From Escherichia coli (GTDB taxonomy: Bacteria > Pseudomonadota > Gammaproteobacteria > Enterobacterales > Enterobacteriaceae), in the NCBI RefSeq assembly GCF_003334315.1, contig NZ_QOWR01000025.1: DNA of 64,000 nucleotides; one strand, given 5' to 3'. The notes beneath the pieces were generated by a model. It was given only the letters and a program-made list of their open reading frames with translations, made no database searches and had not been told where the DNA came from. Both the position numbers and the translations under genes were made by a program. Below, in pieces: positions 42,947-64,000 of this stretch. Position 1 is the first letter of the stretch, and each line of letters starts with the position of its first letter.

Positions 42947-44464
42947 TTATTGTTCTACGGCCATCAGACGTCGGTATTCATCCCACGCATAGAGGTCGGT
43001 CATACCGCTGATATAATCCTGCAGCAGGCGGCAACGGTAATAATATTCCCATAGCGGAAACTCAGGAGAATCTGACGGTAATTTACTGACAGCCTCGACA
43101 TAGGCCAGCCGATGGCGCGTCGAGAGTTTGTGGAATAAGCGCGATTCAATAGGGAAACGTTTCACCCGTTCTTTTTCTACCAGTTCAGTAAAGTCTGATA
43201 ACGACAGGCTTAATAAAGGACGATAAATCTCTAATAATCCGCTAATGACCCGATAGCCCTGCAATTCAAGCTGCTCGACATCTGGATGGCTAAACACATG
43301 TTTTACAGCGACATTTTTATATAGCTTAAGAAGATCGCTGCATTCGCTGGCATCTTCCAATAATGCATGATTAAACGTTCCGGCGAAAATCGCAGGCAGA
43401 TTATCAATAAATCGTTGTGCCGCGTAGGGTACCAGTTTATTTAGGGTGTTTACCCGTAAATACATAAAAAACTGATCTTCCGTACTGCGGCTTAAACTAT
43501 TTGAGCGTGATTTTTCCCAGGCATTTTCAACCACCAGCGAAAAGAGCGAACCTTTCTCATGCTGGCCCCACGCTTCGTGCAAATGATGATAAAGCTGCTC
43601 AACGGTAAATATTCTTTTCTCTACCGCATCTTCAAGGTCTGCCACACAATAGGAGATGTCGTCGGCAGCTTCCATAATCCACGTTAATGGAAAACGACTG
43701 TAAAGCGCCAAATTAAGTTCTTTACGCAACCGGGCAATATAGGCTTCTTCAGAAAGATAATAACCCGGCTTTTTCATTAAATAGTGATGTGTCTCAGGCG
43801 TTTCGCCACGCCACCACGCCGGACGGGTATATTTTAAAATACCGCCAACCTGTGCCCAGGTGAGATTCATCCGCATCAATGTATGCACCAGGCGAATGCC
43901 TTGTGCATTCCCCTCAAAATGACATAAGTCCTGACGAATCTTGCGCCGCAGCTCGTTAAGCGGTTCTTCCCCGTCCCGTAAACGTAGTGCCGCCACGCTG
44001 CAGCGATCGTCAGTCAGAGGCTGGCTTTCGGCATCTTCCGGGTGCAAACGTTGGCGAAACCAGTCATTTATCGCCGCTTCGCCAAAATGACCAAACGGCG
44101 GATTGCCGATATCGTGCATCAGGCATGACATCTCAACAATGCTTTCAAAGGGACCGGTCAGTTCATCCAGGCCGTATGCTTCCAGTAATTTAAGCTCTTT
44201 CAGACGGCTTAAAATTTCTTTGGCGATGTAGCGCCCCACCTGCTGGACTTCCATCGAGTGGGTAAGACGCGTGCGCACGGCGGCATTGCGCTCCAGTGGA
44301 AAAACCTGGGTCTTTTGTTGCAGACGACGAATTGCCGGAGAGTTGATGATACGCCCGCGATCGCTCTCGAAGATCCGCAGGATCTCATGTTCGGTTTTAA
44401 CGCCCTGCGGTGAACGGTAACGACGATGCCAGTTTATTTTTTTTCGGAAATCAATCTGTGCCAT
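42947..44464 (-). CDS. dgt: dGTP triphosphohydrolase
   Basis: 505-aa ORF with HD-domain motifs. Confidence 0.95.
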
Positions 44465-44547
44465 GTCCTCTCCCGCGTGAGAAATACGCTTCCCCGTAAG
44501 CGCATGGTAAACTATGCCTTCAAATCGGGCTTATCGCGAGTAAATCT

Positions 44548-45246
44548 ATGAAAATCGGCATCATTGGTGCAATGGAAGAAGAAGTTACGCTGCTGCGTGA
44601 CAAAATCGAAAACCGTCAAACTATCAGTCTCGGCGGTTGCGAAATCTATACCGGCCAACTGAATGGAACCGAGGTTGCGCTTCTGAAATCGGGCATCGGT
44701 AAAGTCGCTGCGGCGCTGGGTGCCACTTTGCTGTTGGAACACTGCAAGCCAGATGTGATTATTAACACCGGTTCTGCCGGTGGCCTGGCACCAACGTTGA
44801 AAGTGGGCGATATCGTTGTCTCGGACGAAGCACGTTATCACGACGCGGATGTCACGGCATTTGGTTATGAATACGGTCAGTTACCAGGCTGTCCGGCAGG
44901 CTTTAAAGCTGACGATAAACTGATCGCTGCCGCTGAGGCCTGCATTGCCGAACTGAATCTTAACGCTGTACGTGGCCTGATTGTTAGCGGCGACGCTTTC
45001 ATCAACGGTTCTGTTGGTCTGGCGAAAATCCGCCACAACTTCCCACAGGCCATTGCTGTAGAGATGGAAGCGACGGCAATCGCCCATGTCTGCCACAATT
45101 TCAACGTCCCGTTTGTTGTCGTACGCGCCATCTCCGACGTGGCCGATCAACAGTCTCATCTTAGCTTCGATGAGTTCCTGGCTGTTGCCGCTAAACAGTC
45201 CAGCCTGATGGTTGAGTCACTGGTGCAGAAACTTGCACATGGCTAA
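44548..45246 (+). CDS. mtnN: 5'-methylthioadenosine/S-adenosylhomocysteine nucleosidase
   Basis: 232-aa ORF ([12 protein letters not shown]...), PNP/UDP phosphorylase fold. Confidence 0.96.
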
Positions 45247-46039
45247 GTCACTGTTCAGGGCGCTGGTCGCCCTGTCTTTTCTTGCGCCACTGTGGCTCAA
45301 CGCCGCGCCGCGCGTCATCACGCTTTCTCCCGCCAACACTGAACTTGCCTTTGCCGCCGGGATCACGCCGGTTGGGGTCAGCAGCTATTCCGACTATCCT
45401 CCACAAGCGCAAAAGATTGAGCAGGTTTCCACCTGGCAGGGGATGAATCTGGAACGCATTGTCGCGCTGAAACCCGATCTGGTGATTGCCTGGCGTGGAG
45501 GTAATGCCGAGCGGCAGGTTGACCAGCTGGCTTCGCTGGGAATAAAAGTGATGTGGGTCGATGCGACAAGCATTGAACAAATTGCCAATGCGTTACGTCA
45601 ACTGGCCCCCTGGAGTCCGCAACCAGACAAGGCCGAACAAGCCGCGCAATCCCTGCTGGATCAGTACGCGCAATTGAAAGCGCAATATGCTGATAAACCT
45701 AAAAAACGTGTTTTTCTGCAATTCGGCATTAATCCGCCATTTACCAGTGGAAAAGAGTCGATTCAGAACCAGGTACTCGAAGTTTGTGGCGGAGAAAACA
45801 TCTTTAAAGACAGCCGGGTTCCCTGGCCGCAAGTTAGCCGCGAACAGGTGTTAGCACACTCGCCACAGGCGATTGTCATTACAGGCGGACCGGACCAAAT
45901 TCCTAAAATCAAACAATACTGGGGTGAACAGCTCAAAATTCCCGTTATTCCTCTCACGAGTGACTGGTTTGAACGTGCAAGCCCACGTATTATCCTCGCT
46001 GCACAACAGCTCTGTAATGCGCTTTCACAGGTAGATTAG
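45239..46039 (+). CDS. btuF: vitamin B12-binding periplasmic protein
   Basis: 266 aa from [14 protein letters not shown] with signal peptide; overlaps the mtn 3' end by 8 bp; the ORF track adds 9 upstream codons. Confidence 0.9.
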
Positions 46040-46076
46040 CGCCTGACCTTTTCAGGTGCTCAGTGGGGATTGAACA

Positions 46077-46700
46077 ATGCTCGTCTATTGGCTGGATATA
46101 GTCGGCACAGCGGTATTTGCCATCTCCGGCGTTTTGTTAGCCGGAAAATTGCGTATGGACCCTTTTGGTGTTCTGGTACTGGGCGTGGTAACCGCAGTAG
46201 GCGGCGGGACAATTCGCGACATGGCGCTGGATCACGGCCCGGTATTTTGGGTGAAAGATCCCACCGATCTGGTCGTTGCAATGGTCACCAGCATGCTGAC
46301 CATCGTGCTGGTGCGCCAGCCAAGACGCTTACCAAAATGGATGTTGCCGGTGCTGGACGCCGTTGGTCTGGCGGTGTTTGTCGGCATTGGCGTGAATAAA
46401 GCCTTTAATGCGGAAGCCGGTCCGTTAATCGCGGTTTGTATGGGCGTCATTACTGGCGTTGGCGGCGGGATCATTCGTGATGTTCTGGCCCGCGAAATCC
46501 CCATGATTTTACGTACAGAAATCTACGCAACTGCCTGTATTATCGGCGGTATTGTCCACGCTACGGCTTATTACACATTTTCCGTACCACTGGAAACAGC
46601 CAGTATGATGGGCATGGTCGTGACGCTATTGATTCGGCTGGCGGCTATTCGTTGGCATCTTAAGCTACCGACGTTTGCGCTGGATGAGAATGGGCGTTGA
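46077..46700 (+). CDS. yadS: UPF0126 inner membrane protein YadS
   Basis: 207-aa hydrophobic ORF with an internally duplicated glycine-rich motif (GGGTIRD / GGGIIRD). Confidence 0.88.
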   Translation: MLVYWLDIVGTAVFAISGVLLAGKLRMDPFGVLVLGVVTAVGGGTIRDMALDHGPVFWVKDPTDLVVAMVTSMLTIVLVRQPRRLPKWMLPVLDAVGLAVFVGIGVNKAFNAEAGPLIAVCMGVITGVGGGIIRDVLAREIPMILRTEIYATACIIGGIVHATAYYTFSVPLETASMMGMVVTLLIRLAAIRWHLKLPTFALDENGR

Positions 46701-46710
46701 AGAGAGAAGA

Positions 46711-46735
46711 TGTGCCGGATAGTTTATCCGGCACA
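46711..46735. terminator. hairpin between convergent yadS and erpA
   Basis: tgtgccggatagtttatccggcaca palindrome between the two stop codons; flanking T tracts are weak. Confidence 0.4.
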
Positions 46736-46746
46736 TGAACAACAGA

Positions 46747-47091
46747 TTAGATACTAAAGGAAGAACCGCAACCGCAGGTGCTTTTCGCGTTCGGGTTGGT
46801 CACGATGAAACGAGAACCTTCCAGACCTTCGGTATAATCAACGGAACCGCCGACCAGATATTGCAGGCTCATCGGATCAACCACCAGGCCAACGCCCTGT
46901 TTTTCGATGGTCATATCGCCTTCGTTCACCTGATCATCAAAGGTGAAACCATACTGGAAGCCGCTGCAACCGCCACCGGTGATATACACGCGTAATTTCA
47001 GATTCGGGTTATCTTCGTCAGCGATCAGGCTTTTAACTTTGTTGGCTGCTGCGTCGGTAAACTCCAGCGGCAGTGCTACGTCATCACTCAT
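46747..47091 (-). CDS. erpA: iron-sulfur cluster insertion protein ErpA (A-type carrier)
   Basis: 114 aa from [11 protein letters not shown] with the C-terminal CGCGSSF motif; the ORF track adds 15 upstream codons. Confidence 0.92.
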
Positions 47092-47172
47092 ATTTTGCTC
47101 CAAACGACATCGGCAATTGGGCAAATTATAACCCAATAATAATCGCCATTATCTAATACCCTGGTATTTCGT

Positions 47173-48612
<1,440 letters not shown>

Positions 48613-48818
48613 TCATACAAATAAGATGACGGCATTTTACTCGCACGTTCCATGAAAATCCTTTGCAAAGCGTAATGTTTCAAATGCACAAAACTTTTAT
48701 ACTCTAAGAAATCAGGATTGCACCAGTACAAGCAGCCTGATGTTTGACGAGTATTTAACTTGTTATGAATAACATAGAATAGCAGCCATTCACTTTTTCT
48801 ACGAATCAGGAACCCTCC

Positions 48819-50099
48819 ATGAGTAAGTCTGAAAATCTTTACAGCGCAGCGCGCGAGCTGATCCCTGGCGGTGTGAACTCCCCTGTTCGCGCCTTTACTG
48901 GCGTGGGCGGCACTCCACTGTTTATCGAAAAAGCGGACGGCGCTTATCTGTACGATGTTGATGGCAAAGCCTATATCGATTATGTCGGTTCCTGGGGGCC
49001 GATGGTGCTGGGCCATAACCATCCGGCAATCCGCAATGCCGTGATTGAAGCCGCCGAGCGTGGTTTAAGCTTTGGTGCACCAACCGAAATGGAAGTGAAA
49101 ATGGCGCAACTGGTGACCGAACTGGTCCCGACCATGGATATGGTGCGCATGGTGAACTCCGGCACTGAAGCGACCATGAGCGCCATCCGCCTGGCCCGTG
49201 GTTTTACCGGTCGCGACAAAATTATTAAATTTGAAGGGTGTTACCATGGTCACGCTGACTGCCTGCTGGTGAAAGCCGGTTCTGGCGCACTCACGTTAGG
49301 CCAGCCAAACTCGCCGGGCGTTCCGGCAGATTTCGCCAAACATACCTTAACCTGTACTTATAATGATCTGGCTTCTGTACGCGCCGCATTTGAGCAATAC
49401 CCGCAAGAGATTGCCTGTATTATCGTCGAGCCGGTGGCAGGCAATATGAACTGTGTTCCGCCGCTGCCAGAGTTCCTGCCAGGTCTGCGCGCGCTGTGCG
49501 ACGAATTTGGCGCGTTGCTGATCATCGATGAAGTGATGACCGGTTTCCGCGTAGCGCTAGCTGGCGCACAGGATTATTACGGCGTAGTGCCAGATTTAAC
49601 CTGCCTCGGCAAAATCATCGGCGGTGGAATGCCGGTAGGCGCATTCGGTGGTCGTCGTGATGTAATGGATGCGCTGGCCCCGACGGGTCCGGTCTATCAG
49701 GCGGGTACGCTTTCCGGTAACCCGATTGCGATGGCAGCGGGTTTCGCCTGTCTGAATGAAGTCGCGCAGCCGGGCGTTCACGAAACGCTGGATGAGCTGA
49801 CAACACGTCTGGCAGAAGGTCTGCTGGAAGCGGCAGAAGAAGCCGGAATTCCGCTGGTCGTTAACCACGTTGGCGGCATGTTCGGTATTTTCTTTACCGA
49901 CGCCGAGTCCGTGACGTGCTATCAGGATGTGATGGCCTGTGACGTGGAACGCTTTAAGCGTTTCTTCCATATGATGCTGGACGAAGGTGTTTACCTGGCA
50001 CCGTCAGCGTTTGAAGCGGGCTTTATGTCCGTGGCGCACAGCATGGAAGATATCAATAACACCATCGATGCTGCACGTCGGGTGTTTGCGAAGTTGTGA
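48819..50099 (+). CDS. hemL: glutamate-1-semialdehyde 2,1-aminomutase
   Basis: 426-aa class III aminotransferase. Confidence 0.96.
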
Positions 50100-50108
50100 T
50101 CCAGCATG

Positions 50109-50245
<137 letters not shown>

Positions 50246-50256
50246 ATATGGAAAAA

Positions 50257-52239
50257 TTAACGGCTCTGCTTTCTCAACAAATAGATAAAATATGGCGCGC
50301 CGATAAAGGTTGACAGCAGCCCCGCCGGGATCTGGAATGGAAACAGCACCATCCGCCCACACCAGTCAGCGAACACCAGCAGTAAACCACCCACCAGCGC
50401 CGAAATTACGATGTGTGGCATCGTCCGTCGAAAGCCCATCATCCGCGCAATATGCGGTGCCATTAAACCAACAAAACTCAACGGTCCAATAGTCATCGTC
50501 GCGGTCGCCGTCAGGCAAGCCGCTAACAGCAGCAGCGCAATTCGCGTCGGCGTCAGCGCCATTCCTACGGCTCGGGCGGTATCACCACCCAGCGGTAAAA
50601 TGGTCAGCCAGCGGCGGCACAGCGGGGTAATCGCCAGCAAAATCACCATCACAATTCCGGTGCGCCAGACCTGCGCATCGGTCGCGTTGTAGGTCGAACC
50701 GGAAATCCAGGTCAGCACTTGCGCCATTCGCGGGTCACCACTTGCCTGCAACATCATCAAAAGCATGGTGAACGCGGTGCTTAACGCCATCCCCGCCAGT
50801 AACATACGGTGTGGGGAAAATCCACCGCGGCCGGCGGCGATCATAATGATCAACAGCGTCACCGCCGCGCCGAGACTGCCTGCAGGTAACAGCCAGCCAA
50901 AGGCATTACCCGGCACCAGAAACAGCATCAACACCACGCCAAACGCCGCGCCGGAGCTAATCCCCAGCACTTCCGGGCTTGCCATCGGGTTTCCGGTCAG
51001 TCGCTGAATAATACAGCCCGCCACCGCCAGCATGACGCCCGCAAACAGCGCCGCCATAATTCGCGGCCAGCGCCAGGGCATTAAATCCTCGAGCAACGCC
51101 CCGCTCGCCCACGTCCAGCCGTGCGCATCACGACCAAACGACAGCGCCACCACCACAGCCATCAACAGCAGCACGCCGCCCGCGAGGGCAAACGCCAGCA
51201 CATGTTGGCGTTCAGCCGCGACACGATCGTTGACCTTCATATCCGGCGCGCTAATGCTGCGTAAACGCGGCAACAGCCACAGTAGCAGCGGCGCACCGAT
51301 CAACGCAGTGACCGAACCGGTGGACACTTCCATCCACACGCGAGTCAGCCAGAGGATGATTTGATCGGAAAGCCAGAGGATCAGCGCACCAATCAACGAC
51401 GCCAGCATCAGTCGTGGCAGCAGACGCCGCGCCCCCAGCATTTTTGCCAGCAGCGGCGCGAACAACCCGATAAAGCCGATAATCCCCACAGCGTTCACCA
51501 GCAGCGCACTGATGACAATCGCCAGCGACAGCGCCGCCAGACGCGCAAGCGACAAGGCCAGCCCGAGATTGCGCGCCACGCCATCATCAAGCCCCATCAG
51601 GGTTAACGGACGAAGTAGCAGCAACGTCAGCATCACACCGCCCAGCAACTGCGGCCATAAACGCTCAACACCGCCCCAGTCGGTTTGCGTCAGCGTTCCA
51701 GTGCTCCACAGAAACATGCTTTGCAACTGGTCATGATGGAAGATAACCAGTAACTGATTGATTGCCCCACAATAAAGGCTCACTACCAGCCCCGCGAGAA
51801 TCAGCGTAACCGGCGAAAGCCGTTTCCCCCACGCGACGCCAAAGACAATTAAGCCAACAACGCAAGCCCCTGCCAGCGCAGCAAACTGGCTCGCCATAGC
51901 ACCGGGGATCGCCCAGAGCGTGGTGACGGTAATCCCCAGTTGCGCGCCTGTAGCAACGCCCAACGTCGTCGGTTCCGCCAGCGGGTTACGCAGCACTTGC
52001 TGAAACAGCACGCCCACCAGCCCCAGGCCCGCGCCCACCAGTAGAGAAATCGCCAGACGTGGTAACAAGCTGTAGTGAAAAATCATCTGCTCGATGACGT
52101 TAATATCCGGCGACCAGGCGGCCTGCGCCCACTGGCTACGCGGCAGCGCCTGCGAAAAGTTCATCCAGGTCAGCGCCGTAGCGACAATCACCAGCAGCGC
52201 CAGCAATAACGCCGGAAAAAGCGCAATTCGTTTACTCAC
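50257..52239 (-). CDS. fhuB: ferric hydroxamate ABC transporter permease (duplicated permease domains)
   Basis: 660-aa polytopic ORF. Confidence 0.95.
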   Translation of the reverse strand: MSKRIALFPALLLALLVIVATALTWMNFSQALPRSQWAQAAWSPDINVIEQMIFHYSLLPRLAISLLVGAGLGLVGVLFQQVLRNPLAEPTTLGVATGAQLGITVTTLWAIPGAMASQFAALAGACVVGLIVFGVAWGKRLSPVTLILAGLVVSLYCGAINQLLVIFHHDQLQSMFLWSTGTLTQTDWGGVERLWPQLLGGVMLTLLLLRPLTLMGLDDGVARNLGLALSLARLAALSLAIVISALLVNAVGIIGFIGLFAPLLAKMLGARRLLPRLMLASLIGALILWLSDQIILWLTRVWMEVSTGSVTALIGAPLLLWLLPRLRSISAPDMKVNDRVAAERQHVLAFALAGGVLLLMAVVVALSFGRDAHGWTWASGALLEDLMPWRWPRIMAALFAGVMLAVAGCIIQRLTGNPMASPEVLGISSGAAFGVVLMLFLVPGNAFGWLLPAGSLGAAVTLLIIMIAAGRGGFSPHRMLLAGMALSTAFTMLLMMLQASGDPRMAQVLTWISGSTYNATDAQVWRTGIVMVILLAITPLCRRWLTILPLGGDTARAVGMALTPTRIALLLLAACLTATATMTIGPLSFVGLMAPHIARMMGFRRTMPHIVISALVGGLLLVFADWCGRMVLFPFQIPAGLLSTFIGAPYFIYLLRKQSR

Positions 52240-53126
52240 GCTTTACCTCCGATGGCGTTATCCAGAACGCGCACAAAGTGCATTGCCGAGAGCGTCGCAC
52301 CATAAAACCAGACTGCGGGTACGCGCTGAAAGCGTCCGGCGCGGACAAACGGCATGGCCTGCCACAGCGGGGTTGCCATTAGCGCGTCCATGTCTTTGCT
52401 GTTGTCGTGATCAAAACAGAGCACATCAACATCTTTATACGCCGCCAGACGATCGATGCTGACGGCGGTACTGCCCCAGAAGTTGGTTTCCCCTTGCCAG
52501 GCATTTGGGATGCCGTACTCATCAAGAATTTCCTGAAACAAGCTGTTTGGACCGAAAACCAGCATATGGCGCGGATCGATAAGCGTCGTCAGCAATAACG
52601 GGCGTTCACCACGCTTCACAAAGCGGGGTTTCATGCTGCGGATAAAGTCTTCATAGTGCGCTAAATGCGTTTCTGCTGCGCTTTGCAGGTTAAGTAAATC
52701 TGCCATTTCCGTCAGTGACTTACGCGCCATCGCCAGCGGCTGTTTGCCATCGCTGAAGTTAAATCCACGCCCCGGCGCAATACGAGCCAGCATTTCTGGT
52801 GAAGGGCCATATCCTGCCGACCAGACCATAAACGACGGTTTCATTTCGGTCAGCAGTTCAAGGTTAGGTTCTGTGCGCAAACCGACGTCGATCACTGAGT
52901 CCGGCAATGGTGGTTCGCTGACCCACAGGCGATAGTTGATGGTATCCGCCACGCCGTAAGGCACGATGCCGAGCGCCAGCAGTAATTCCACCGGCAACCA
53001 CTCCAGCGCCACAATACGATTGGGATCAATAGCCGCCGCGTGGGCGGTATTCATCTGCCATAACAACGGAGAAAGCGCCATCGCCGTTAACAGTCGACGG
53101 CGCGAAATAAGAGGTAAGCCGCTCAT
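52236..53126 (-). CDS. fhuD: ferric hydroxamate periplasmic binding protein
   Basis: About 296-aa ORF with a twin-arginine-like signal (SRRRLL); overlaps the fhuB and fhuC junctions. Confidence 0.93.
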   Translation of the reverse strand: MSGLPLISRRRLLTAMALSPLLWQMNTAHAAAIDPNRIVALEWLPVELLLALGIVPYGVADTINYRLWVSEPPLPDSVIDVGLRTEPNLELLTEMKPSFMVWSAGYGPSPEMLARIAPGRGFNFSDGKQPLAMARKSLTEMADLLNLQSAAETHLAHYEDFIRSMKPRFVKRGERPLLLTTLIDPRHMLVFGPNSLFQEILDEYGIPNAWQGETNFWGSTAVSIDRLAAYKDVDVLCFDHDNSKDMDALMATPLWQAMPFVRAGRFQRVPAVWFYGATLSAMHFVRVLDNAIGGKA

Positions 53127-53923
53127 CAATAAACAAAACTCACAGGTGCAGCACCCGCCGGATGCGGCAAAATACCCATCGGGATGCCATAAATCATTTC
53201 GAGGGTTTCGCCGCGCATAATTTCCGCAGGCGTTCCCTGAGCAATCATTTCACCGCCGCGCAGGGCGACCAGATAATCACAGTAGCGTGCCGCCATATTG
53301 ATATCGTGCAACACGGCAATGACCGTCAGGCCACGCTCCTGACTTAAACGGTGCACCAGCGACAGCACATCAACCTGGTGGGCGATATCCAGCGCCGAGG
53401 TCGGTTCGTCGAGCAACAGACAACGGCTATCCTGCGCCACCAGCATGGCGATCCACGCCCGCTGACGTTCGCCGCCAGAGAGACTATCGACCAGCCGATG
53501 CGCCAGCGGTTTTAAGCCAACCAGCGAGATAGCTTCCTCGACTTTTTCGCGATCTGCCGCCCCAAAGCGCCCCAGCGCGCCATGCCACGGGTAACGACCA
53601 ATCGCCACCAGTTCACGCACGGTCATCCCTTCTGCCGGAGGAAGCTGCTGCGGCAAATAAGCCACTTTGCGGGCAAACGCTTTGCTGCTCCAGCTTTCCA
53701 GCGGTTGGGCATCAAGAAGAATCTCCCCTTCCGACGGCGGCTGATGACGGCCAAGCATTTTGAGCAGAGTGGATTTACCAGAACCGTTGTGACCAATCAG
53801 ACCGGTCACTTTCCCGGCAGGAAAGGTTAACGACAGCGGATGCAAAAGCGTGCGCCCGGGCACACGAAAGGAGATATTACGCAGTGCAAAAGTGGTATCG
53901 GAATGATTCGTGTATTCCTGCAT
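53126..53923 (-). CDS. fhuC: ferric hydroxamate ABC transporter ATP-binding protein
   Basis: 265 aa from MQEYTNHSD with Walker A GHNGSGKST; the ORF track adds 14 upstream codons. Confidence 0.93.
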   Translation of the reverse strand: MQEYTNHSDTTFALRNISFRVPGRTLLHPLSLTFPAGKVTGLIGHNGSGKSTLLKMLGRHQPPSEGEILLDAQPLESWSSKAFARKVAYLPQQLPPAEGMTVRELVAIGRYPWHGALGRFGAADREKVEEAISLVGLKPLAHRLVDSLSGGERQRAWIAMLVAQDSRCLLLDEPTSALDIAHQVDVLSLVHRLSQERGLTVIAVLHDINMAARYCDYLVALRGGEMIAQGTPAEIMRGETLEMIYGIPMGILPHPAGAAPVSFVY

Positions 53924-53973
53924 AACAGCCAACTTGTGAAATGGGCACGGAAATCCGTGCCCCAAAAGAGAAA

Positions 53974-56217
53974 TTAGAAACGGAAGGTTGCGGTTGCAAC
54001 GACCTGACGTTCTGCGCCCCAGAAGCAGCCATAAGTGTTAAAGCAGCTGGCGACGTATTCACGATCGAACAGGTTGTTAACATGCAGCGCCACGTTGGAG
54101 CCAGCCATGCCGACTCGCGCCAGATCATAACGTACTAACGCATCCACGACCGTATAACTTCCCACTTTAAAGGAGTTAGCCGGATCACCATAGCTGGAGC
54201 CAGTATAACGACCACCGGTGCCCAGCGTCAGACCTGAAAGCGGACCGTCAAAGAAGGTATAGTCAGCCCACAGCGAAGCCATGTGTTTTGGCACCTGTGC
54301 AGGCGTATTGCCTTTATAGGTAGTATCGGTGGTGTATTCCGCATCGGTGTAAGTATAAGAACCGACTACGTTAACACTCGCCGACAGCGCCGCTTTCGCT
54401 TCGATTTCTACGCCACGTGCGCGGATCTCGCCACCTTCAACCGAGAAGAAGGAACCCTCAGGGTCCGCCATCAGGTTGTTGGTTTTAGTGAGATTATACA
54501 CGGCACCAGTAACTACAATCGGACGATCTTCCGGTACATATTTCACGCCGACTTCATACTGCTTACCTTTAGACGGTGCGAAAATATTACCATCCTTCCC
54601 AACTTGCGAAGAAGGTTCAAACGATTCGCTATAGCTGAAGTAAGGTGTTACACCATTATCAAACAGGTAGTTAACACCACCACGCCAGGTAAACTGTTTG
54701 TCATCACGTTTATCGGTCGTCCCGGCAACGCGGTTAAGAGATTCTTGATCTGCCCAGTCATAACGACCGCCCAGGGTGACCAGCACTTTATCCCACTGCG
54801 CCTGATCCTGAACATAAACGCCCGTTTGTTTCTGTTTATTCAGAATGCGGTAAGGGCCGGAGTTTGCCGGATCTTTGGCATTGAAGTCGAAATCGGTATT
54901 CACCGGATTGTACAGATTGAGCAGTGGCACAGAGTCGTCGTAACCAAACCAGGCGTTGATGTCATTACGCATACGCATAAAGTCGACACCGGTCAGCAGG
55001 GTGTGGTCGATATCGCCAGTGGCAAACTTGCTCTGCAACTGGGTATCAACGGAGAAGTTTTGCAGCTTCTCATCATCAACGACGTATTTACGTGCCAGAT
55101 AATGGCCTTTATCCGCTGGCGCTAATGCCGCACACTGTTTGCTGTAAGCATTCGCCGGATCGGAGCAGACGCCGTAACCATAAACGCTGTTTTGCGAGGT
55201 TTTGTTTTCAGCAAAGCGCAGGTTCTGACGCACAGTAAAGGTGTCGTTAAATTCGTGATCGAAGCTGTAGCCCACCATCTTCTCATTACGTGAATAGGTG
55301 TTGTTCTTCGCCCCTTCATTAAAGTCTGTCGGCAGACGCTTACCGTTCGGCAGCGGCTCAACGGTTCCCTCTTTCGGCAACCAGCCGTAATAACCGGTTT
55401 CCGGCTCGTTCTGGAAGTAAGAAAGGAAGGTGAAATTGGTTTTATCATCCGGACGCCAGGTGAACGCCGGTGCAATAGCATAACGCTGCTCTTCTGACCC
55501 TTTCTGCTGGGCATTGGCAGAACGCGCAAGACCGGTCAGGCGATAAGAGTAAACGCCGTCATCATCCAGCGCATCGCTAAAGTCAAAACCAGTCTGGAAC
55601 AGGCTGTCAGTACCGGCTTTAAACTGAACTTCTTTCAGCGGTTCGGTGGTCGGACGCTTGCTGACCATATTCAACAGACCGCCAGGACTGCTTTTACCGT
55701 AAAGCACGGAAACCGGGCCACGCATAATTTCAGCGCGTTCCAGCATATACGGATCAATGACCGCATCGTTATAGAAGTTGCCCTGCAACTTCAGGCCATT
55801 CAGATAGTTATTCTGGCTTTGGCCTTCTGCCGCAAAACCGCGAATGATCAGGTGGTCATAGGTGTTGGATGCGCCACGCGTACCAACAGAGACACCCGGC
55901 GTGTAGCTAAGCGCTTCTTTTACCGACTTCGGCTGATGCAGCGCCATCTCTTCGGCGGTCACAACAGAAATAGACTGTGGCACTTTTTGAATCGGCGTAT
56001 CGGTTTTAGTGCCGGTAGCTGACTGTCGCGCCGCAATAGTTGCAGCAGGCCCCCATGCGCTTTCTTGCGGCGCAGGTGCAGCGGTAACGGTGATAGTGTC
56101 TTCTTTCGGTTCAACCGCTGCCTGTGCATAAACAGACATGCCGCTAACCGCTGTGGCTACTACAACTGCGATTTTACGCAGTGAGTGTTTTGGCTGAGCA
56201 GTTTTGGAACGCGCCAT
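53974..56217 (-). CDS. fhuA: TonB-dependent ferrichrome outer-membrane transporter
   Basis: 747-aa ORF with signal peptide, plug domain and beta-barrel ending in a terminal F. Confidence 0.97.
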   Translation of the reverse strand: MARSKTAQPKHSLRKIAVVVATAVSGMSVYAQAAVEPKEDTITVTAAPAPQESAWGPAATIAARQSATGTKTDTPIQKVPQSISVVTAEEMALHQPKSVKEALSYTPGVSVGTRGASNTYDHLIIRGFAAEGQSQNNYLNGLKLQGNFYNDAVIDPYMLERAEIMRGPVSVLYGKSSPGGLLNMVSKRPTTEPLKEVQFKAGTDSLFQTGFDFSDALDDDGVYSYRLTGLARSANAQQKGSEEQRYAIAPAFTWRPDDKTNFTFLSYFQNEPETGYYGWLPKEGTVEPLPNGKRLPTDFNEGAKNNTYSRNEKMVGYSFDHEFNDTFTVRQNLRFAENKTSQNSVYGYGVCSDPANAYSKQCAALAPADKGHYLARKYVVDDEKLQNFSVDTQLQSKFATGDIDHTLLTGVDFMRMRNDINAWFGYDDSVPLLNLYNPVNTDFDFNAKDPANSGPYRILNKQKQTGVYVQDQAQWDKVLVTLGGRYDWADQESLNRVAGTTDKRDDKQFTWRGGVNYLFDNGVTPYFSYSESFEPSSQVGKDGNIFAPSKGKQYEVGVKYVPEDRPIVVTGAVYNLTKTNNLMADPEGSFFSVEGGEIRARGVEIEAKAALSASVNVVGSYTYTDAEYTTDTTYKGNTPAQVPKHMASLWADYTFFDGPLSGLTLGTGGRYTGSSYGDPANSFKVGSYTVVDALVRYDLARVGMAGSNVALHVNNLFDREYVASCFNTYGCFWGAERQVVATATFRF

Positions 56218-56239
56218 TGGTATATCTCTGATGTAAAGT

Positions 56240-56290
56240 GAATGATAACGTAAACGAGAATGATTATTATAAAGATAAGATAATATTCGA
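56240..56290. promoter_or_regulatory. Fur box(es) in the fhuA promoter
   Basis: AT-rich hexamer arrays tgaatgataacg and gagaatgattattataaagataagataatattc resembling the Fur consensus GATAATGATAATCATTATC, 25-70 bp upstream of the fhuA start. Confidence 0.65.
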
Positions 56291-56396
56291 AACGCTGGCG
56301 GGTTCGCAAGCGGTACGCAATCTGAGCGTTCCTGAAGGGTTAATAAACAACCAGATGAAAAGAAAGGGTTAATACTTTGGGTGGGATGTTATTTTA

Positions 56397-56421
56397 CCGG
56401 ATGGCAACTCGCCATCCGGTA
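56397..56421 (-). terminator. hairpin after mrcB
   Basis: accggatggcaactcgccatccggt perfect inverted repeat 16 bp past the mrcB stop; no strong U tract. Confidence 0.45.
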
Positions 56422-56436
56422 TTTCACGTTTAGACG

Positions 56437-58962
56437 TTAATTACTACCAAACATATCTTTAATCCAACCGGCTACACCGTCGCTGTCTTTCTGCTCTTGC
56501 TGAGCAGGTTGCTGTTGCTGCGGCTGAGAAGACTGATCAAACGGATTGCCTGACGGTTGCTGCTGCATCTCACTCTGCTGGCACAGCGATTGCGGATCGC
56601 TGGTCCAGACCGGCAAGACACGCATGCCACCGCTGCAAACAAAGTTGCCGTCGTAGTCCACGCCCATATCTGCAATATCTTCTGGCGGAACAAGATTCAG
56701 CGGTGTTGGCGTCTGGTTAGCCAGATAACGCTGATAAATCGACATTGCCCCGCTGGCTCCATACAGTTTGGTCGGCTGGTTGTTATCACGGCCTACCCAG
56801 GTGATGGTCACCGTGCTGCCGTCAATGCCCGCAAACCAGGTATCTACGTTATTGTTGGTAGTCCCTGTTTTCCCTGCCAGATGCAGGTTCGGGTATTTCG
56901 CCCCAAGCTGACGACCCGTACCGCGTTGTACAACCTGCTGCATGGTCCATAGTGTCAGATACGCCGCCTGCGCCGGAACAGCGCGTTCCGCCTGCGGGAA
57001 GCTCTGATACAGCACTTTGCCATCTTCCGCGATTACCGAACGCAGTGCAGAAAGCGGTGCACGGTTACCACCGCTGGCGATGGTCTGGAATGCCTGCGCC
57101 ACTTCGATTGGCGTTAAGTTCAACGCCCCCAGCAGCATCGCCGGAACCGGATGCAACTGATCTTTCGGTACGCCCAGTTTGATCCAGGTCTCCGTAACCG
57201 CAGGCAGCCCCAGCGCCATCCCCAGATTTACCGTCGGCACGTTCATCGAACGGGTCAACGCATCCACCAGCATCACTCTGCCACTTTCGCTATAACGACG
57301 ATCATCGTTCTGCGGTGACCAGACCTGGCCATTCGGCTGACGCAGCGCAATTGGCGCATCCGCAATCCACGTATTCAGACGATAGATTTTCGGCTGGCTT
57401 AAGGCCGTCAGATAAGTCGCTGGTTTTGCAAGGGAACCAATCGAACGACGCGCCTGCATCGCACGGTTGTAGCCCGCAAACTGCGGCTCAGAACCTCCGA
57501 CCATCGCACGAACTTCACCACTAAAGCGGTCGACGACCACAATCGCAGTTTCAAGATCGCTCAACTTACGCTGTTTCTTCAGTGCAGGAATGCCTTCCAC
57601 GGCGGCTTTTTCTGCCGCGTCCTGGGCCACCGAGTCAAAGGTAGTGAAGATCTTCACGCCGGAGAGATCTTTTACCTTATCGCCTAATTTCGCTTGCAGC
57701 TCCTGACGCACCAATTGCATAAAGGCTGGCTGTGGAGAGATTACCCCACCGCGCGGCTGAACCCCCAGCGGACGCGCACTCAACATGTCATAGAGTTCTT
57801 GATCAATAATCTGTTGCTGTTGCAGCAGACGCAGCACCAGATTACGTCGCTCCAGCGCCAGTTTCGGGTTACGCCACGGGTTGTAGATGGACGCTCCTTT
57901 CACCATACCGACTAACAGTGCCTGCTGATCGAGGCTTAGCTCTTCTACCGGGCGACCAAAGTAATACAAGCTCGCCAGCGGGAAGCCACGGATTTCGTTG
58001 TCGCCGCTCTGACCGAGATACACCTCGTTCATATACAGCTCAAGAATACGGTCTTTGCTGTAACGCGCGTCCATGATCAGCGCCATGTAAGCTTCGTTCG
58101 CTTTACGCCAGTAAGAACGCTCGCTGGAGAGGAACAGGTTTTTCACCAGCTGTTGCGTCAGCGTACTCGCACCCTGTACCGTGCGTCCGGCGGTCAGGTT
58201 TGCCAGCACCGCACGTCCGATTGAGTAGAGACTGATTCCATCATGCTCGTAAAAATGACGGTCTTCTGTCGCCAGCAAAGTATCCACCAGCAAATCCGGG
58301 AAACCACTGCGCGGCACAAACAGACGCTGCTCACCGTTTGGCGAAGAGATCATGGTGATCAGACGCGGATCAAGACGGAAGAAACCGAACTGACGGTTGT
58401 TCTCCATATTGACGATCGTCGCCAGATGATCGCCATCAAAGGTCAGACGCGCGCGCACCTGTCCTTCTTTACTGTCCGGGAAATCAAACGGACGGCGAAT
58501 CATCTCAATGCTGTTGGCCTGCACGGTAAATTCGCCAGGACGGGTCATTTTCGACACCTGACGATACTGGGTCGCCTCCAGCAGCTTCACCATCTCGTTC
58601 TTGCTGATGGTCATGTCTGGCTCAAGATTGACCATTCGGCCATAAACTGCCGCAGGCAGTTGCCAGACCTTGCCATCAATACGGCTACGAATTTTTTGAT
58701 CGAGATAAACGCCGTAAATGGCGATCAGCACGGCAAAAACGATAGCCAGTTTTAGCAGTAGCCATAGCCAGCCGCGTTTGCCACGAGGCTTACGCCCTTT
58801 GCCTTTGCCCTTACCTTTGCGCGGCATCGGTTCTTCATCCTCATAGTCATCATAATCGTCGTAATCATCGTCATCTTCGTAACGACGACGGCTTACCTTT
58901 TGTTTGACCGGACGCGTCGGTTTCCCTTTGCGTCCAATTGGCTCGCGGTCATTCCCGGTCAT
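56437..58962 (-). CDS. mrcB: penicillin-binding protein 1B (bifunctional glycosyltransferase/transpeptidase)
   Basis: Called from the ATG at 58960-58962 (MTGNDREP..., 841 codons); the in-frame ORF continues 5 codons upstream to a TTG. Has an acidic DDY / basic GKG repeat N-terminus, a TM helix, and GT51 and transpeptidase domains. Confidence 0.92.
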
Positions 58963-59059
58963 GCTTTTTCTCCGCAATATTCAGGCGCAAAAGCCCGATT
59001 TTCTGTTCTTCTGTTACAAGACAGAAGAAGATATCTCTCAAAATTTGTGCTCGATCGGT

Positions 59060-59145
59060 CCCCTCTCCCTTGAGGGAGAGGGTTAGGGTGAGGGTGAACG
59101 TGCGCGCTGATGCCCTCACCCCGGCCCTCTCCCACAGGGAGAGGG
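59060..59145. repeat. GC-rich triple-hairpin intergenic element (possible small dispersed repeat, BoxC-like)
   Basis: Three nested perfect palindromes: ccctctccct/agggagaggg (59061-59082), gggtgaggg...ccctcaccc (59085-59121) and ccctctccc-aca-gggagaggg (59124-59144), between the hrpB stop and the mrcB start. Confidence 0.6.
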
Positions 59146-59157
59146 AGAAAACCAACC

Positions 59158-61587
59158 TTACGAATACTTTTTCGTCCGTCGCGTCGGTGCAGTATTTGCC
59201 GGGTCGTCCGGCCAGACATGTTTGGGATAACGCCCTTTCATCTCTTTTTGCACCTCACGGTACGCTCCTTTCCAGAAGGCGCTCAAATCTCGTGTGATTT
59301 GTAATGGCCTTTGGGCAGGTGAAAGCAACTCCAGCACCAGCGGCACGCGCCCCTGGGCGATCGTCGGATTGGTGGCCTCGCCAAACATCTCTTGCATTCT
59401 CACCGCCAGCGCGGGCGGGTTATCTTCATGATAACGAATGGCGATCCGGCTTCCCGTCGGCACAGTGTAATGCGCAGGCAATTCACTATCCAGACGTTGC
59501 TGCATTCCCCAATCAAGTAATCCGCGTAGTGCCTGATAAATGTCGAGTGATTTCAGGCCGCGTAGTGAATGTACGCCAGTCATATGTGGCAGCAGCCACG
59601 TTTCCAGCGCTGCCAATAAACTTTCATCATCAACCGCTGGCCAGTCATATTCCGGCAACCACTTTGCGGCGCATAACAAACGCAAGCGTAGCTGTTCCGC
59701 TTCCGCCGTCCAGTTGAGCACGCTTAAACCTTTATCACGGATGCCATTAAGCATCGCCTGATGCAACTCGTCTTCTGACGGTTTCGCCAGCGGCTGCACT
59801 TTCACCGTCAACTGACCGATTTGTAGCCGACGCCAGGCTTTCAGCGTACCTTGCGCGTCATCCCACTCCACAGTGTCAGACTGCTGTACCAGCTGCGGGC
59901 AGCGTTGTACTAACTCATCAATATCGACCAGCAGCGCCAGTAAAATCCGCGCATCCGGCGAGGCGCTGCCCTGCAATAATAACGGTGCGATCAACCATTC
60001 GTGGCGGCTTAGCGCGTCGTTGGCATCGAGCATCGCTCCCATGCCGTTTGCCAGTTGATAGCGTCCATCTTGCCCACGGCGACGAGCAATGCGATCGGCA
60101 AACGCCCCGGCAAGTAGCGGCGCGATAAGCGAACTGTCTGCCTCACCGCCACGTACGTTTAAGCGTTTTAACAGTTGCTGACTACGTTGCTGCCAGGCTG
60201 GTTGATTGCGCGAAAACGCCACGCCCAGGTCACTATTGCCCATCCGTGGCGGCTCTTCGAGAATGGCGGCAATTTTTGCCGCGGTAGCAGCTTCGTCGTC
60301 GTTCTTCGCGCTAACCAGCATTGCCGCTAAACGCGGATCGTTACCCAGCGCTGCCATTTTTTGCCCTTGCGCACTAAGCCGTTCACCCTCCAGTGCCCCC
60401 AGCATTTGTAACAGACGTTTCGCGGCCAGTAGATTCACTACTGGCGGTTGATCCAGCCAGCTCATCTGCGCCGGATCGCTGCATCCCCATTGCAGTAATT
60501 CCATCAGCAAACCGGAAAGATCGCTTTGTAAGATCTCCGGTTCACTTTGCGCCGCGGCGCGTTCTGCTTGTTCTTTGGCGATTAAATGCAGGCTGATACC
60601 CGGCTCCAGACGCCCGGCGCGCCCGGCACGCTGCGTCATGGATGCCTGGCTAACGCGTTGAGTAATCAGTCGCGTAAGCCCCGTGCGCGGATCAAAACGC
60701 GCCACACGCTCCTGGGCACAATCCACCACCAGACGAATACCTTCAATGGTTAAACTGGTTTCAGCAATATTGGTCGCCAGCACCACTTTGCGCATCCCTT
60801 GCGGTGCCGGGAGGATCGCTTTTCGCTGATCGTTCAGCGACAACGCGCCATACAGCGGGCAGAGCAATACATCACTGCCGATGCGCGAAGCCAGTTGTTC
60901 CTGCACACGCTGAATTTCTCCGACGCCAGGTAAAAATAACAGTAATGATCCGCTTTCCTGACGCAGCATTTCAGCGGTGGCTACCGCAACGGCATCGTCA
61001 AAACGCTGATGCGCGGGCAGCGGTAAATAACGGCGTTCAACCGGAAACGAGCGCCCTTCTGAGATGACGACAGGCGCTTCTGGCAGCATTTGCTGCAAGC
61101 GGTCGTTGTCCAGGGTAGCCGACATAATCAGCAGTTTAAGGTCATCACGCAGACCTTGTTGCACATCGAGTAACAGCGCCAACGCCAAATCCGCCTGCAA
61201 GCTGCGCTCATGAAATTCATCAAGGATCACCAGTCCAACACCGCTCAGTTCCGGGTCACGCTGGATCATGCGCGTCAGCACGCCTTCGGTAACCACTTCC
61301 AGGCGGGTATTCGGCCCGACGCAGTTTTGCGCACGCATCCGGTAGCCAACGGTATCGCCTGGCTTTTCGTTAAGCAGCTCCGCCAGCCGTTGCGCGACGT
61401 TACGCGCCGCCAGACGACGCGGCTCCAGCAGGATAATTTTCCCGTTAATGCCGGGATGCGCCAGCAGTTGCAGCGGCAGCCAGGTTGATTTCCCGGCCCC
61501 GGTCGGCGCACTTAATAATACCTGCGGCGCACAATCGAGAGCGGTAAGTAATTCAGGTAAGACGGCAGCAACGGGCAACGACGACAC
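59158..61587 (-). CDS. hrpB: ATP-dependent RNA helicase HrpB (DEAH-box)
   Basis: 809 aa from GTG (complement of 61585-61587) with RBS ggag upstream; Walker A TGAGKST and DEFH motif; the ORF track's ATG start adds 15 codons. Confidence 0.9.
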   Translation of the reverse strand: MSSLPVAAVLPELLTALDCAPQVLLSAPTGAGKSTWLPLQLLAHPGINGKIILLEPRRLAARNVAQRLAELLNEKPGDTVGYRMRAQNCVGPNTRLEVVTEGVLTRMIQRDPELSGVGLVILDEFHERSLQADLALALLLDVQQGLRDDLKLLIMSATLDNDRLQQMLPEAPVVISEGRSFPVERRYLPLPAHQRFDDAVAVATAEMLRQESGSLLLFLPGVGEIQRVQEQLASRIGSDVLLCPLYGALSLNDQRKAILPAPQGMRKVVLATNIAETSLTIEGIRLVVDCAQERVARFDPRTGLTRLITQRVSQASMTQRAGRAGRLEPGISLHLIAKEQAERAAAQSEPEILQSDLSGLLMELLQWGCSDPAQMSWLDQPPVVNLLAAKRLLQMLGALEGERLSAQGQKMAALGNDPRLAAMLVSAKNDDEAATAAKIAAILEEPPRMGNSDLGVAFSRNQPAWQQRSQQLLKRLNVRGGEADSSLIAPLLAGAFADRIARRRGQDGRYQLANGMGAMLDANDALSRHEWLIAPLLLQGSASPDARILLALLVDIDELVQRCPQLVQQSDTVEWDDAQGTLKAWRRLQIGQLTVKVQPLAKPSEDELHQAMLNGIRDKGLSVLNWTAEAEQLRLRLLCAAKWLPEYDWPAVDDESLLAALETWLLPHMTGVHSLRGLKSLDIYQALRGLLDWGMQQRLDSELPAHYTVPTGSRIAIRYHEDNPPALAVRMQEMFGEATNPTIAQGRVPLVLELLSPAQRPLQITRDLSAFWKGAYREVQKEMKGRYPKHVWPDDPANTAPTRRTKKYS

Positions 61588-61660
61588 AAAACGCTCCAGA
61601 GGGTTAACATTCTTCGCGCCACATTGTAGCATCGCGGTAATTCATAACCGAGTGCCTCAC

Positions 61661-62910
<1,250 letters not shown>

Positions 62911-63087
62911 TAAAGTAAGTAACTGGTTAATTTACATTCTGGTCGCGTGCGCAAATACGCTTTTCCTCACACAGTTGTCAAGTGTTACGTTTAGATAATT
63001 GCTATCCGGAAAAGCATCTGCTATTTATAGCGGCCTCATTTTTCCCCCGAACATGGGGATCGATAGTGCGTGTTAAGGAGAAGCAAC

Positions 63088-63543
63088 ATGCAAGAAGGGC
63101 AAAACCGTAAAACATCGTCCCTGAGTATTCTCGCCATCGCTGGGGTGGAACCATATCAGGAGAAGCCGGGCGAAGAGTATATGAATGAAGCCCAGCTGGC
63201 GCACTTCCGTCGTATTCTGGAAGCATGGCGTAATCAACTCAGGGATGAAGTCGATCGCACCGTTACACATATGCAGGATGAAGCAGCCAACTTCCCGGAC
63301 CCGGTAGACCGTGCAGCCCAGGAAGAAGAGTTCAGCCTCGAACTGCGTAACCGCGATCGCGAGCGTAAGCTGATCAAAAAGATCGAGAAGACGCTGAAAA
63401 AAGTGGAAGACGAAGATTTCGGCTACTGCGAATCCTGCGGTGTTGAAATTGGTATTCGCCGTCTGGAAGCGCGCCCGACAGCCGATCTGTGCATCGACTG
63501 CAAAACGCTGGCTGAAATTCGCGAAAAACAGATGGCTGGCTAA
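63088..63543 (+). CDS. dksA: RNA polymerase-binding transcription factor DksA
   Basis: 151 aa from MQEGQNRK with the C4 zinc finger [25 protein letters not shown]; the ORF track adds 6 upstream codons. Confidence 0.95.
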
Positions 63544-63570
63544 TTACAGCCGTTCCATCACGTTTACCAC

Positions 63571-63599
63571 AGGCGGGAAATGCTCCCGCCTTATTTTTT
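63571..63599 (+). terminator. intrinsic terminator between dksA and gluQ
   Basis: Hairpin ggcgggaaatgctcccgcc followed by ttatttttt, 28 bp after the dksA stop and immediately before the gluQ start. Confidence 0.8.
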
Positions 63600-63609
63600 G
63601 TTCAAAGAG

Positions 63610-64000
63610 ATGACAGACACACAGTATATTGGCCGCTTCGCCCCCTCTCCTTCCGGCGAGCTTCATTTTGGCTCTCTGATCGCCGCGCTCGGCAGCTATT
63701 TGCAGGCTCGCGCCCGGCAAGGTCGCTGGCTGGTACGCATAGAAGATATCGACCCGCCTCGTGAAGTTCCCGGTGCCGCAGAAACTATCCTGCGCCAGCT
63801 GGAACATTACGGTCTGCACTGGGACGGCGATGTTCTCTGGCAATCGCAACGTCACGACGCCTATCGTGAAGCACTCGCCTGGTTACATGAACAAGGACTA
63901 AGTTATTACTGCACCTGTACGCGTGCGCGTATTCAAAGCATTGGCGGTATTTACGACGGTCATTGCCGGGTGTTGCATCATGGACCAGACAGCGCCGCAG
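63610..64000 (+). CDS. gluQ: glutamyl-Q tRNA(Asp) synthetase (5' part; truncated by window end)
   Basis: ATG at 63610 opens a frame reading [22 protein letters not shown]..., a class I aaRS HIGH-type motif characteristic of GluQ-RS; it runs off the window. Confidence 0.85.

Follow-up and report, generated by a model that had tools for sequence, protein, structure and literature searches.

We asked why the mrcB (ponB) gene carried by a 64,000-nucleotide stretch of Escherichia coli DNA (assembly GCF_003334315.1, contig NZ_QOWR01000025.1; hereafter the window) encodes an 841-residue PBP1b when that of K-12 has 844 residues, and whether the three codons are missing from the repeat-rich 5' end of the gene. 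An original prediction made from the letters of the window had remarked on this shortfall, on short tandem codon repeats encoding the N terminus, and on a 9-bp displacement of the neighbouring hrpB, and had located the 9-bp difference within positions 58790-58977. Our analyses lead to a different placement: with a probability of roughly 93%, the flagged stretch is ordinary coding sequence for a disordered tail at its reference length, and the difference between 841 and 844 residues comes from the loss of a single 9-mer near the C terminus, a common allele.

The mrcB coding sequence lies on the minus strand at 56437..58962, opening with an ATG at 58962-58960 and closing with a stop codon that ends at 56437; its open reading frame and translation give PBP1b alpha as 841 codons plus stop. 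The K-12 MG1655 gene is annotated with 2,535 nt and 844 codons, in agreement with the length given for it in the original prediction. This counterpart (b0149, NP_414691.1; gamma isoform YP_010051172.1) is the same gene in the same context: the order hrpB-mrcB-fhuA is shared with the K-12 annotation and with 11 other annotated genomes, and the fhuA-mrcB and mrcB-hrpB spacers measure 219 bp and 195 bp in both. The protein of the window differs from that of K-12 just by Ala2Thr, Ile782Val and one QQP unit fewer, and PBP1b chains in the PDB match its residues 53-804 (E = 0). As judged from protein identity, synteny and domain coverage, the feature at this locus is mrcB, and sequence identity across the catalytic domains implies that the encoded PBP1b should possess both glycosyltransferase and transpeptidase activity. 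The 9-bp offset of hrpB relative to K-12 spacing is real, and since both flanking spacers have their K-12 lengths, the whole shift must fall inside mrcB.

Alignment of the two genes places it at the 3' end. Against K-12, mrcB of the window has 31 substituted positions and one gap of 9 nt, the missing bases being nucleotides 2445-2453 of the K-12 gene, approximately 2.4 kb downstream of the 5' tract in which they had been sought. At the gap K-12 reads CAGCCGCA[GCAACAGCC]GCAACAGCAACCT, encoding QPQQQPQQQP, and its two tandem 9-mers (GCAACAGCC, GCAACAGCA) are identical at 8/9 positions; the window has one unit, within a Gln/Pro tract (CAGCCGCAGCAACAGCAACCT, QPQQQQP) at 56506..56526 on the minus strand. 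With both spacers unchanged, the 9-bp shift of hrpB is explained by this one C-terminal gap, and we encountered no evidence contradicting either the location or the nature of the difference. To place the allele in the wider population we counted copy-number states in 5,426 complete E. coli genomes, 5,425 of which match mrcB, by means of junction-specific probes of 37-48 nt in which no 28-nt seed is able to match the alternative allele. The one-copy state of the window was found in 729 genomes (about 13%) and the two-copy state of K-12 in 4,553, both counts being lower bounds because some 143 genomes matched neither probe. Three copies occur in four genomes (NS-NP030, KS-NP019, TK3046 and YC21-F17, of which three or more are bovine), which presumably encode 847 residues. 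With one, two and three copies all present, contraction and expansion of the tract must both occur.

The 5' end is indeed repetitive, as had been proposed, with DDY and KG repeats evident in the translation. Tandem Repeats Finder places imperfect arrays at 58835-58882, across the acidic codons (period 18, score 54; also period 9, 4 copies, 77% matches), and at 58796-58820, across the KG codons (period 6, 4.2 copies, 78% matches). About 13 arrays in the 64-kb window score 30 or more, all of them weak and none above the acidic tract, whose repetitiveness is thus genuine and exceeds the local background, although weak on an absolute scale. On the minus strand the gene encodes, in turn, a conserved N-terminal peptide (codons 1-14, 58921..58962), the acidic tract (codons 29-44, 58831..58878), an imperfect period-9/18 DNA repeat, and a basic membrane-proximal tract (codons 48-63, 58774..58821) that includes four KG units at 58795-58818. 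Over its first 973 nt, mrcB shows a single difference from K-12, at nucleotide 4, and no gap, so that the DDY/KG region has exactly the reference length. An identical length in this region had been named beforehand as the outcome that would trace the discrepancy to the reference coordinates assumed; the length is identical, but the discrepancy is a genuine difference near the 3' end of the gene rather than an error in those coordinates.

Both repeat tracts fall largely in parts of the protein that the solved constructs leave out. All solved PBP1b constructs span residues 53, 55 or 58 to 804, and so exclude the C-terminal Gln/Pro tract, and the construct covering 58-804 is described as being without disordered N- and C-terminal regions (PMC8119973); on these grounds we place both tracts in disordered tails. 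When PBP1b carrying an unnatural amino acid in place of G53, K54 or G55 was immobilised, its binding of LpoB remained near the value reported earlier (PMC5298014). The start of the N-terminal tail has a reported role: in the alpha isoform the N terminus, extended on the cytoplasmic side, directs PBP1b to the site of division, probably via FtsA (PMC13423804, Nat Microbiol 2026), its first 14 residues, the reported FtsA binder, being conserved in Enterobacteriaceae and an R6E substitution abolishing recruitment. According to the citation in that paper, an earlier study had implicated the first six residues. In our own comparison, the start M[AS]G[ND]DREPIGRKG was conserved across the sampled enterobacterial homologues, with an acidic tract of about 12 to 35 residues and a KG run of one to four units between species. 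Such free variation fits weak constraint on the length of these tracts, as far as the sampled tails can tell. The underlying search, with the first 120 residues as query, returned fragments with few names, which are usable for the comparison of tails and not for taxonomy. One of the proteins (P0001, from a single-member NCBI cluster) is an mrcB N-terminal fragment in which residues ~3-38 are tandemly duplicated (MAGNDREP...YDDYDGNDREP...), reflecting either a larger duplication of the tail or an assembly artefact.

The same tail contains a second start. That PBP1b has alternative start forms was correctly anticipated: translation begins at Met1 for alpha and at Met46 for gamma, and both isoforms are produced in K-12-type strains (PMC13423804). 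RefSeq annotates the K-12 full-length protein as well as PBP-1Bgamma from codon 46, and the ATG of Met46 in the window (58825..58827, minus strand) is homologous to this annotated gamma start and identical in sequence, as are the length of the N-terminal tract and the GAGGAT upstream of it. The GAGGAT of codons 41-42 (58837..58842) is a Shine-Dalgarno-like site with a predicted duplex energy of -6.1 kcal/mol, the strongest upstream pairing among the 46 internal ATGs of mrcB and similar to the -6.6 kcal/mol of the GGAG (58970..58973, sequence TTGCGGAGAAAAAGCATG) that serves the alpha start. Because it pairs best among the internal ATGs, the acidic codons seem to supply the ribosome-binding site of the internal start, and GAGGAT probably acts as such for gamma. 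Read from its 5' end, the gene encodes a conserved peptide credited in published work with bringing the alpha isoform to the site of division by way of FtsA; next comes an acidic Asp/Tyr/Glu linker whose codons 41-42 form the likely gamma ribosome-binding site; and the internal Met46 is followed by a Lys/Gly/Arg segment that directly precedes the membrane anchor on its inner side. Slipped-strand change would have acted at the far end, removing one of the two tandem 9-bp units from the disordered Gln/Pro-rich C-terminal tail.

The wider population of alleles suggests how such a loss arises. An alignment of 11 alleles identified three independent indel sites in mrcB, at each of which the difference is precisely one copy of the best tandem repeat in the vicinity, namely GAT in GATGAT, GGCAAA in GGCAAAGGCAAA and the C-terminal 9-mer, with multiple copy-number states present in the population. 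One-unit indels in tandem repeats are a signature of slipped-strand mispairing, and from the form of these junctions slippage is the probable mechanism; the length variation of mrcB is a standard in-frame short-tandem-repeat polymorphism. The expectation that tracts of this kind are prone to slippage was borne out in other E. coli, where the junction probes detected one GAT (Asp) codon fewer in the N-terminal tract in 180 of the 5,426 genomes and one GGCAAA (Gly-Lys) unit fewer in 143 (the latter with a probe redesigned by hand), and not in the window, whose 5' tract is unchanged in length. The two N-terminal deletions occur together in a small group (11 records in the 90-95% identity band), which with two C-terminal units comes to 841 residues by the mechanism originally suggested for the window, and about 94% of genomes keep the K-12 N-terminal length. 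A probe for an extra GGCAAA unit in the KG tract matched 0/5,426 genomes, a count that low-complexity masking of the probe could have lowered, though probes of similar composition worked.

The one-copy C-terminal allele is present on two or more strongly diverged backgrounds, since the ST131/B2-type mrcB (WP_000918160.1), which likewise encodes 841 residues via the same one-copy tract, is 106 substitutions apart from that of the window, the differences starting 19 nt downstream of the tract. Comparison of the haplotype flanks suggests that the one-copy state either recurred or was spread by short-patch recombination. Divergence of the window from K-12 is mosaic, with no substitutions in mrcB nucleotides 5-973 and 30 in nucleotides 974-2513, suggesting a recombination breakpoint inside the gene. 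In view of their frequency and their position in disordered tails, we take the length variants to be near-neutral. In a phage-host evolution experiment, a 'Q817 frameshift' in mrcB was reported at a frequency of 51.6% under microgravity (PMC12798971); Q817 falls inside the C-terminal Gln/Pro tract, a hint that laboratory mutations may concentrate there too.

The alternative that survives best, improbable as we consider it, is that mrcB is a contingency locus, with programmed hypervariable repeats that tune the ratio of PBP1b isoforms or their recruitment between strains. In its favour, three separate in-frame repeat tracts of the gene all vary in copy number, the alpha-specific tail acts in recruitment to the division site (PMC13423804), and the frameshift enriched in laboratory evolution falls in the C-terminal tract (PMC12798971). 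However, the repeats comprise just 2-4 units whose DNA copies match imperfectly (76-78%), allele diversity is low, with one prevailing N-terminal length and two dominant C-terminal states, and neither N-terminal indel alters the spacing between GAGGAT and ATG46 in the allele alignment. Because the units of 3, 6 and 9 bp are all multiples of three, copy-number change would not switch the gene on or off. A phase-variable locus of the usual kind, with a long perfect repeat and on/off switching, was accordingly rejected, as the units here are in frame, the copies few and imperfect, and the alleles few in number.

A further alternative concerns the choice of start codon. The in-frame TTG noted upstream of the ATG is present (58975..58977, minus strand), five codons 5' of it and two codons below an in-frame TGA at 58983-58981, and it opens the longest mechanical ORF, of 846 residues. 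Translation from this codon would add LRRKS (read as fMet-RRKS) to the protein, which we regard as very improbable. Within the 20 nt upstream of the TTG there is no Shine-Dalgarno match (-2.5 kcal/mol), and the codon itself sits two bases 5' of the ATG's own GGAG. The sampled Enterobacterales homologues begin M[AS]G[ND]DREPIG, all RefSeq records inspected start mrcB at the ATG, and the functional N-terminal peptide takes Met1 as its first residue (PMC13423804). The TTG start was therefore rejected on pairing energetics, on its position by the GGAG of the ATG, and on N-terminal conservation. A scan of 58900-59200 for promoters and terminators found none, and is uninformative on whether the TTG is included in the transcript. 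An effect alike to that of the TTG is seen at hrpB (59158-61632, minus strand), whose longest ORF of 824 residues, from an upstream ATG, exceeds the 809 residues (2,430 nt) annotated in K-12 and RefSeq.

Slippage inside the N-terminal DDY/GKG tract itself, as an explanation of the three missing codons, retains hardly any probability. The tract is repetitive, in-frame deletions of 3, 6 or 9 bp do occur there in other E. coli, and WP_021576967.1 (LR-71-1, LR14) reaches exactly 841 residues, like the allele of the window, by N-terminal deletions. Unlike the window, that allele has lost one Asp and one Gly-Lys and kept both C-terminal units; in the window the tract aligns to K-12 free of gaps with one substitution, and the sole gap lies at the 3' end, so that direct alignment rules out an N-terminal location. 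Since 841 residues can arise by two unrelated routes, protein length alone cannot identify an mrcB allele. Equally hard to credit, and rejected, is an artefact of sequencing or assembly in this low-complexity sequence: short repeats are classic sites of indel errors, but the 9-bp change keeps the frame, the identical one-copy junction recurs in 729 independent complete genomes, and 79 genomes match the window across the entire gene query with an identity of 99% or more, the closest (e.g. 13C1065T) having the same 841-residue allele.

Having located the missing codons in the C-terminal tail, we examined what distinguishes the window from its nearest relatives. RefSeq protein WP_021546716.1 (e.g. 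13C1065T, AHM9C68I) has 841 residues and a one-copy C-terminal tract, as in the window, and its whole-gene DNA differs by one base, the window encoding Thr2 in place of its Ala2. This single difference from the nearest allele, at 58959 on the minus strand, changes codon 2 from GCC to ACC (gene G4A). An allele-specific 48-mer centred on it matched 0/5,426 complete genomes, and residue 2 was Ala or Ser in 31/31 homologues sampled. The nearest complete genome, AHM9C68I, differs from the window by five scattered SNPs over 20 kb (44000-64000), Ala2Thr among them, and Ala2Thr is an ordinary strain-private SNP. The other four, at 45858, 47128, 61774 and 63992, comprise btuF R207H, one intergenic change, a synonymous change in thpR and gluQRS N128S.

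The finding as a whole is an ordinary one, of a textbook gene with a common natural allele, and the alleles themselves are already known as long-standing RefSeq entries; a search of the literature found no prior description of the 841/844 length polymorphism in mrcB itself. Its practical meaning is that the 841/844 difference among E. coli mrcB annotations reflects copy number in the C-terminal Gln/Pro tract, and is not an issue of start codons or of the N terminus. As the N-terminal tract has a known functional setting, its rare length variants and Ala2Thr nevertheless offer ready-made alleles for the 2026 recruitment model. It seems to us a long shot that Ala2Thr would have a measurable effect on how PBP1b is brought to the septum, or that natural variation in the length of the acidic, KG and QQP tracts would adjust what the isoforms do from one E. 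coli lineage to another.

The spacer upstream of mrcB has a polymorphism of its own. A GC-rich palindromic element occupies 59061-59145 of the window, with 27-nt arms that are 81% complementary and perfect 10-nt arms (CCCTCTCCCT/AGGGAGAGGG). An E-value scan of 56000-59600 against Rfam returned solely a sub-threshold chance match to a microRNA family, on this palindrome, and the idea of structured RNA within or beside the mrcB 5' tract was thus rejected. Matches to the element occur in 4,219 of the 5,426 genomes, in a median of two and at most five places per genome, and we take it to resemble the BoxC-type intergenic repeats. The hrpB-mrcB spacer measures 93 bp in ST131 strain 4224, PEC1013, FAH, ETEC1748 and others, and beside the ST131-type allele WP_000918160.1, compared with 195 bp in the window and K-12; judged by spacer length, the shorter form is presumably due to absence of the palindromic element.
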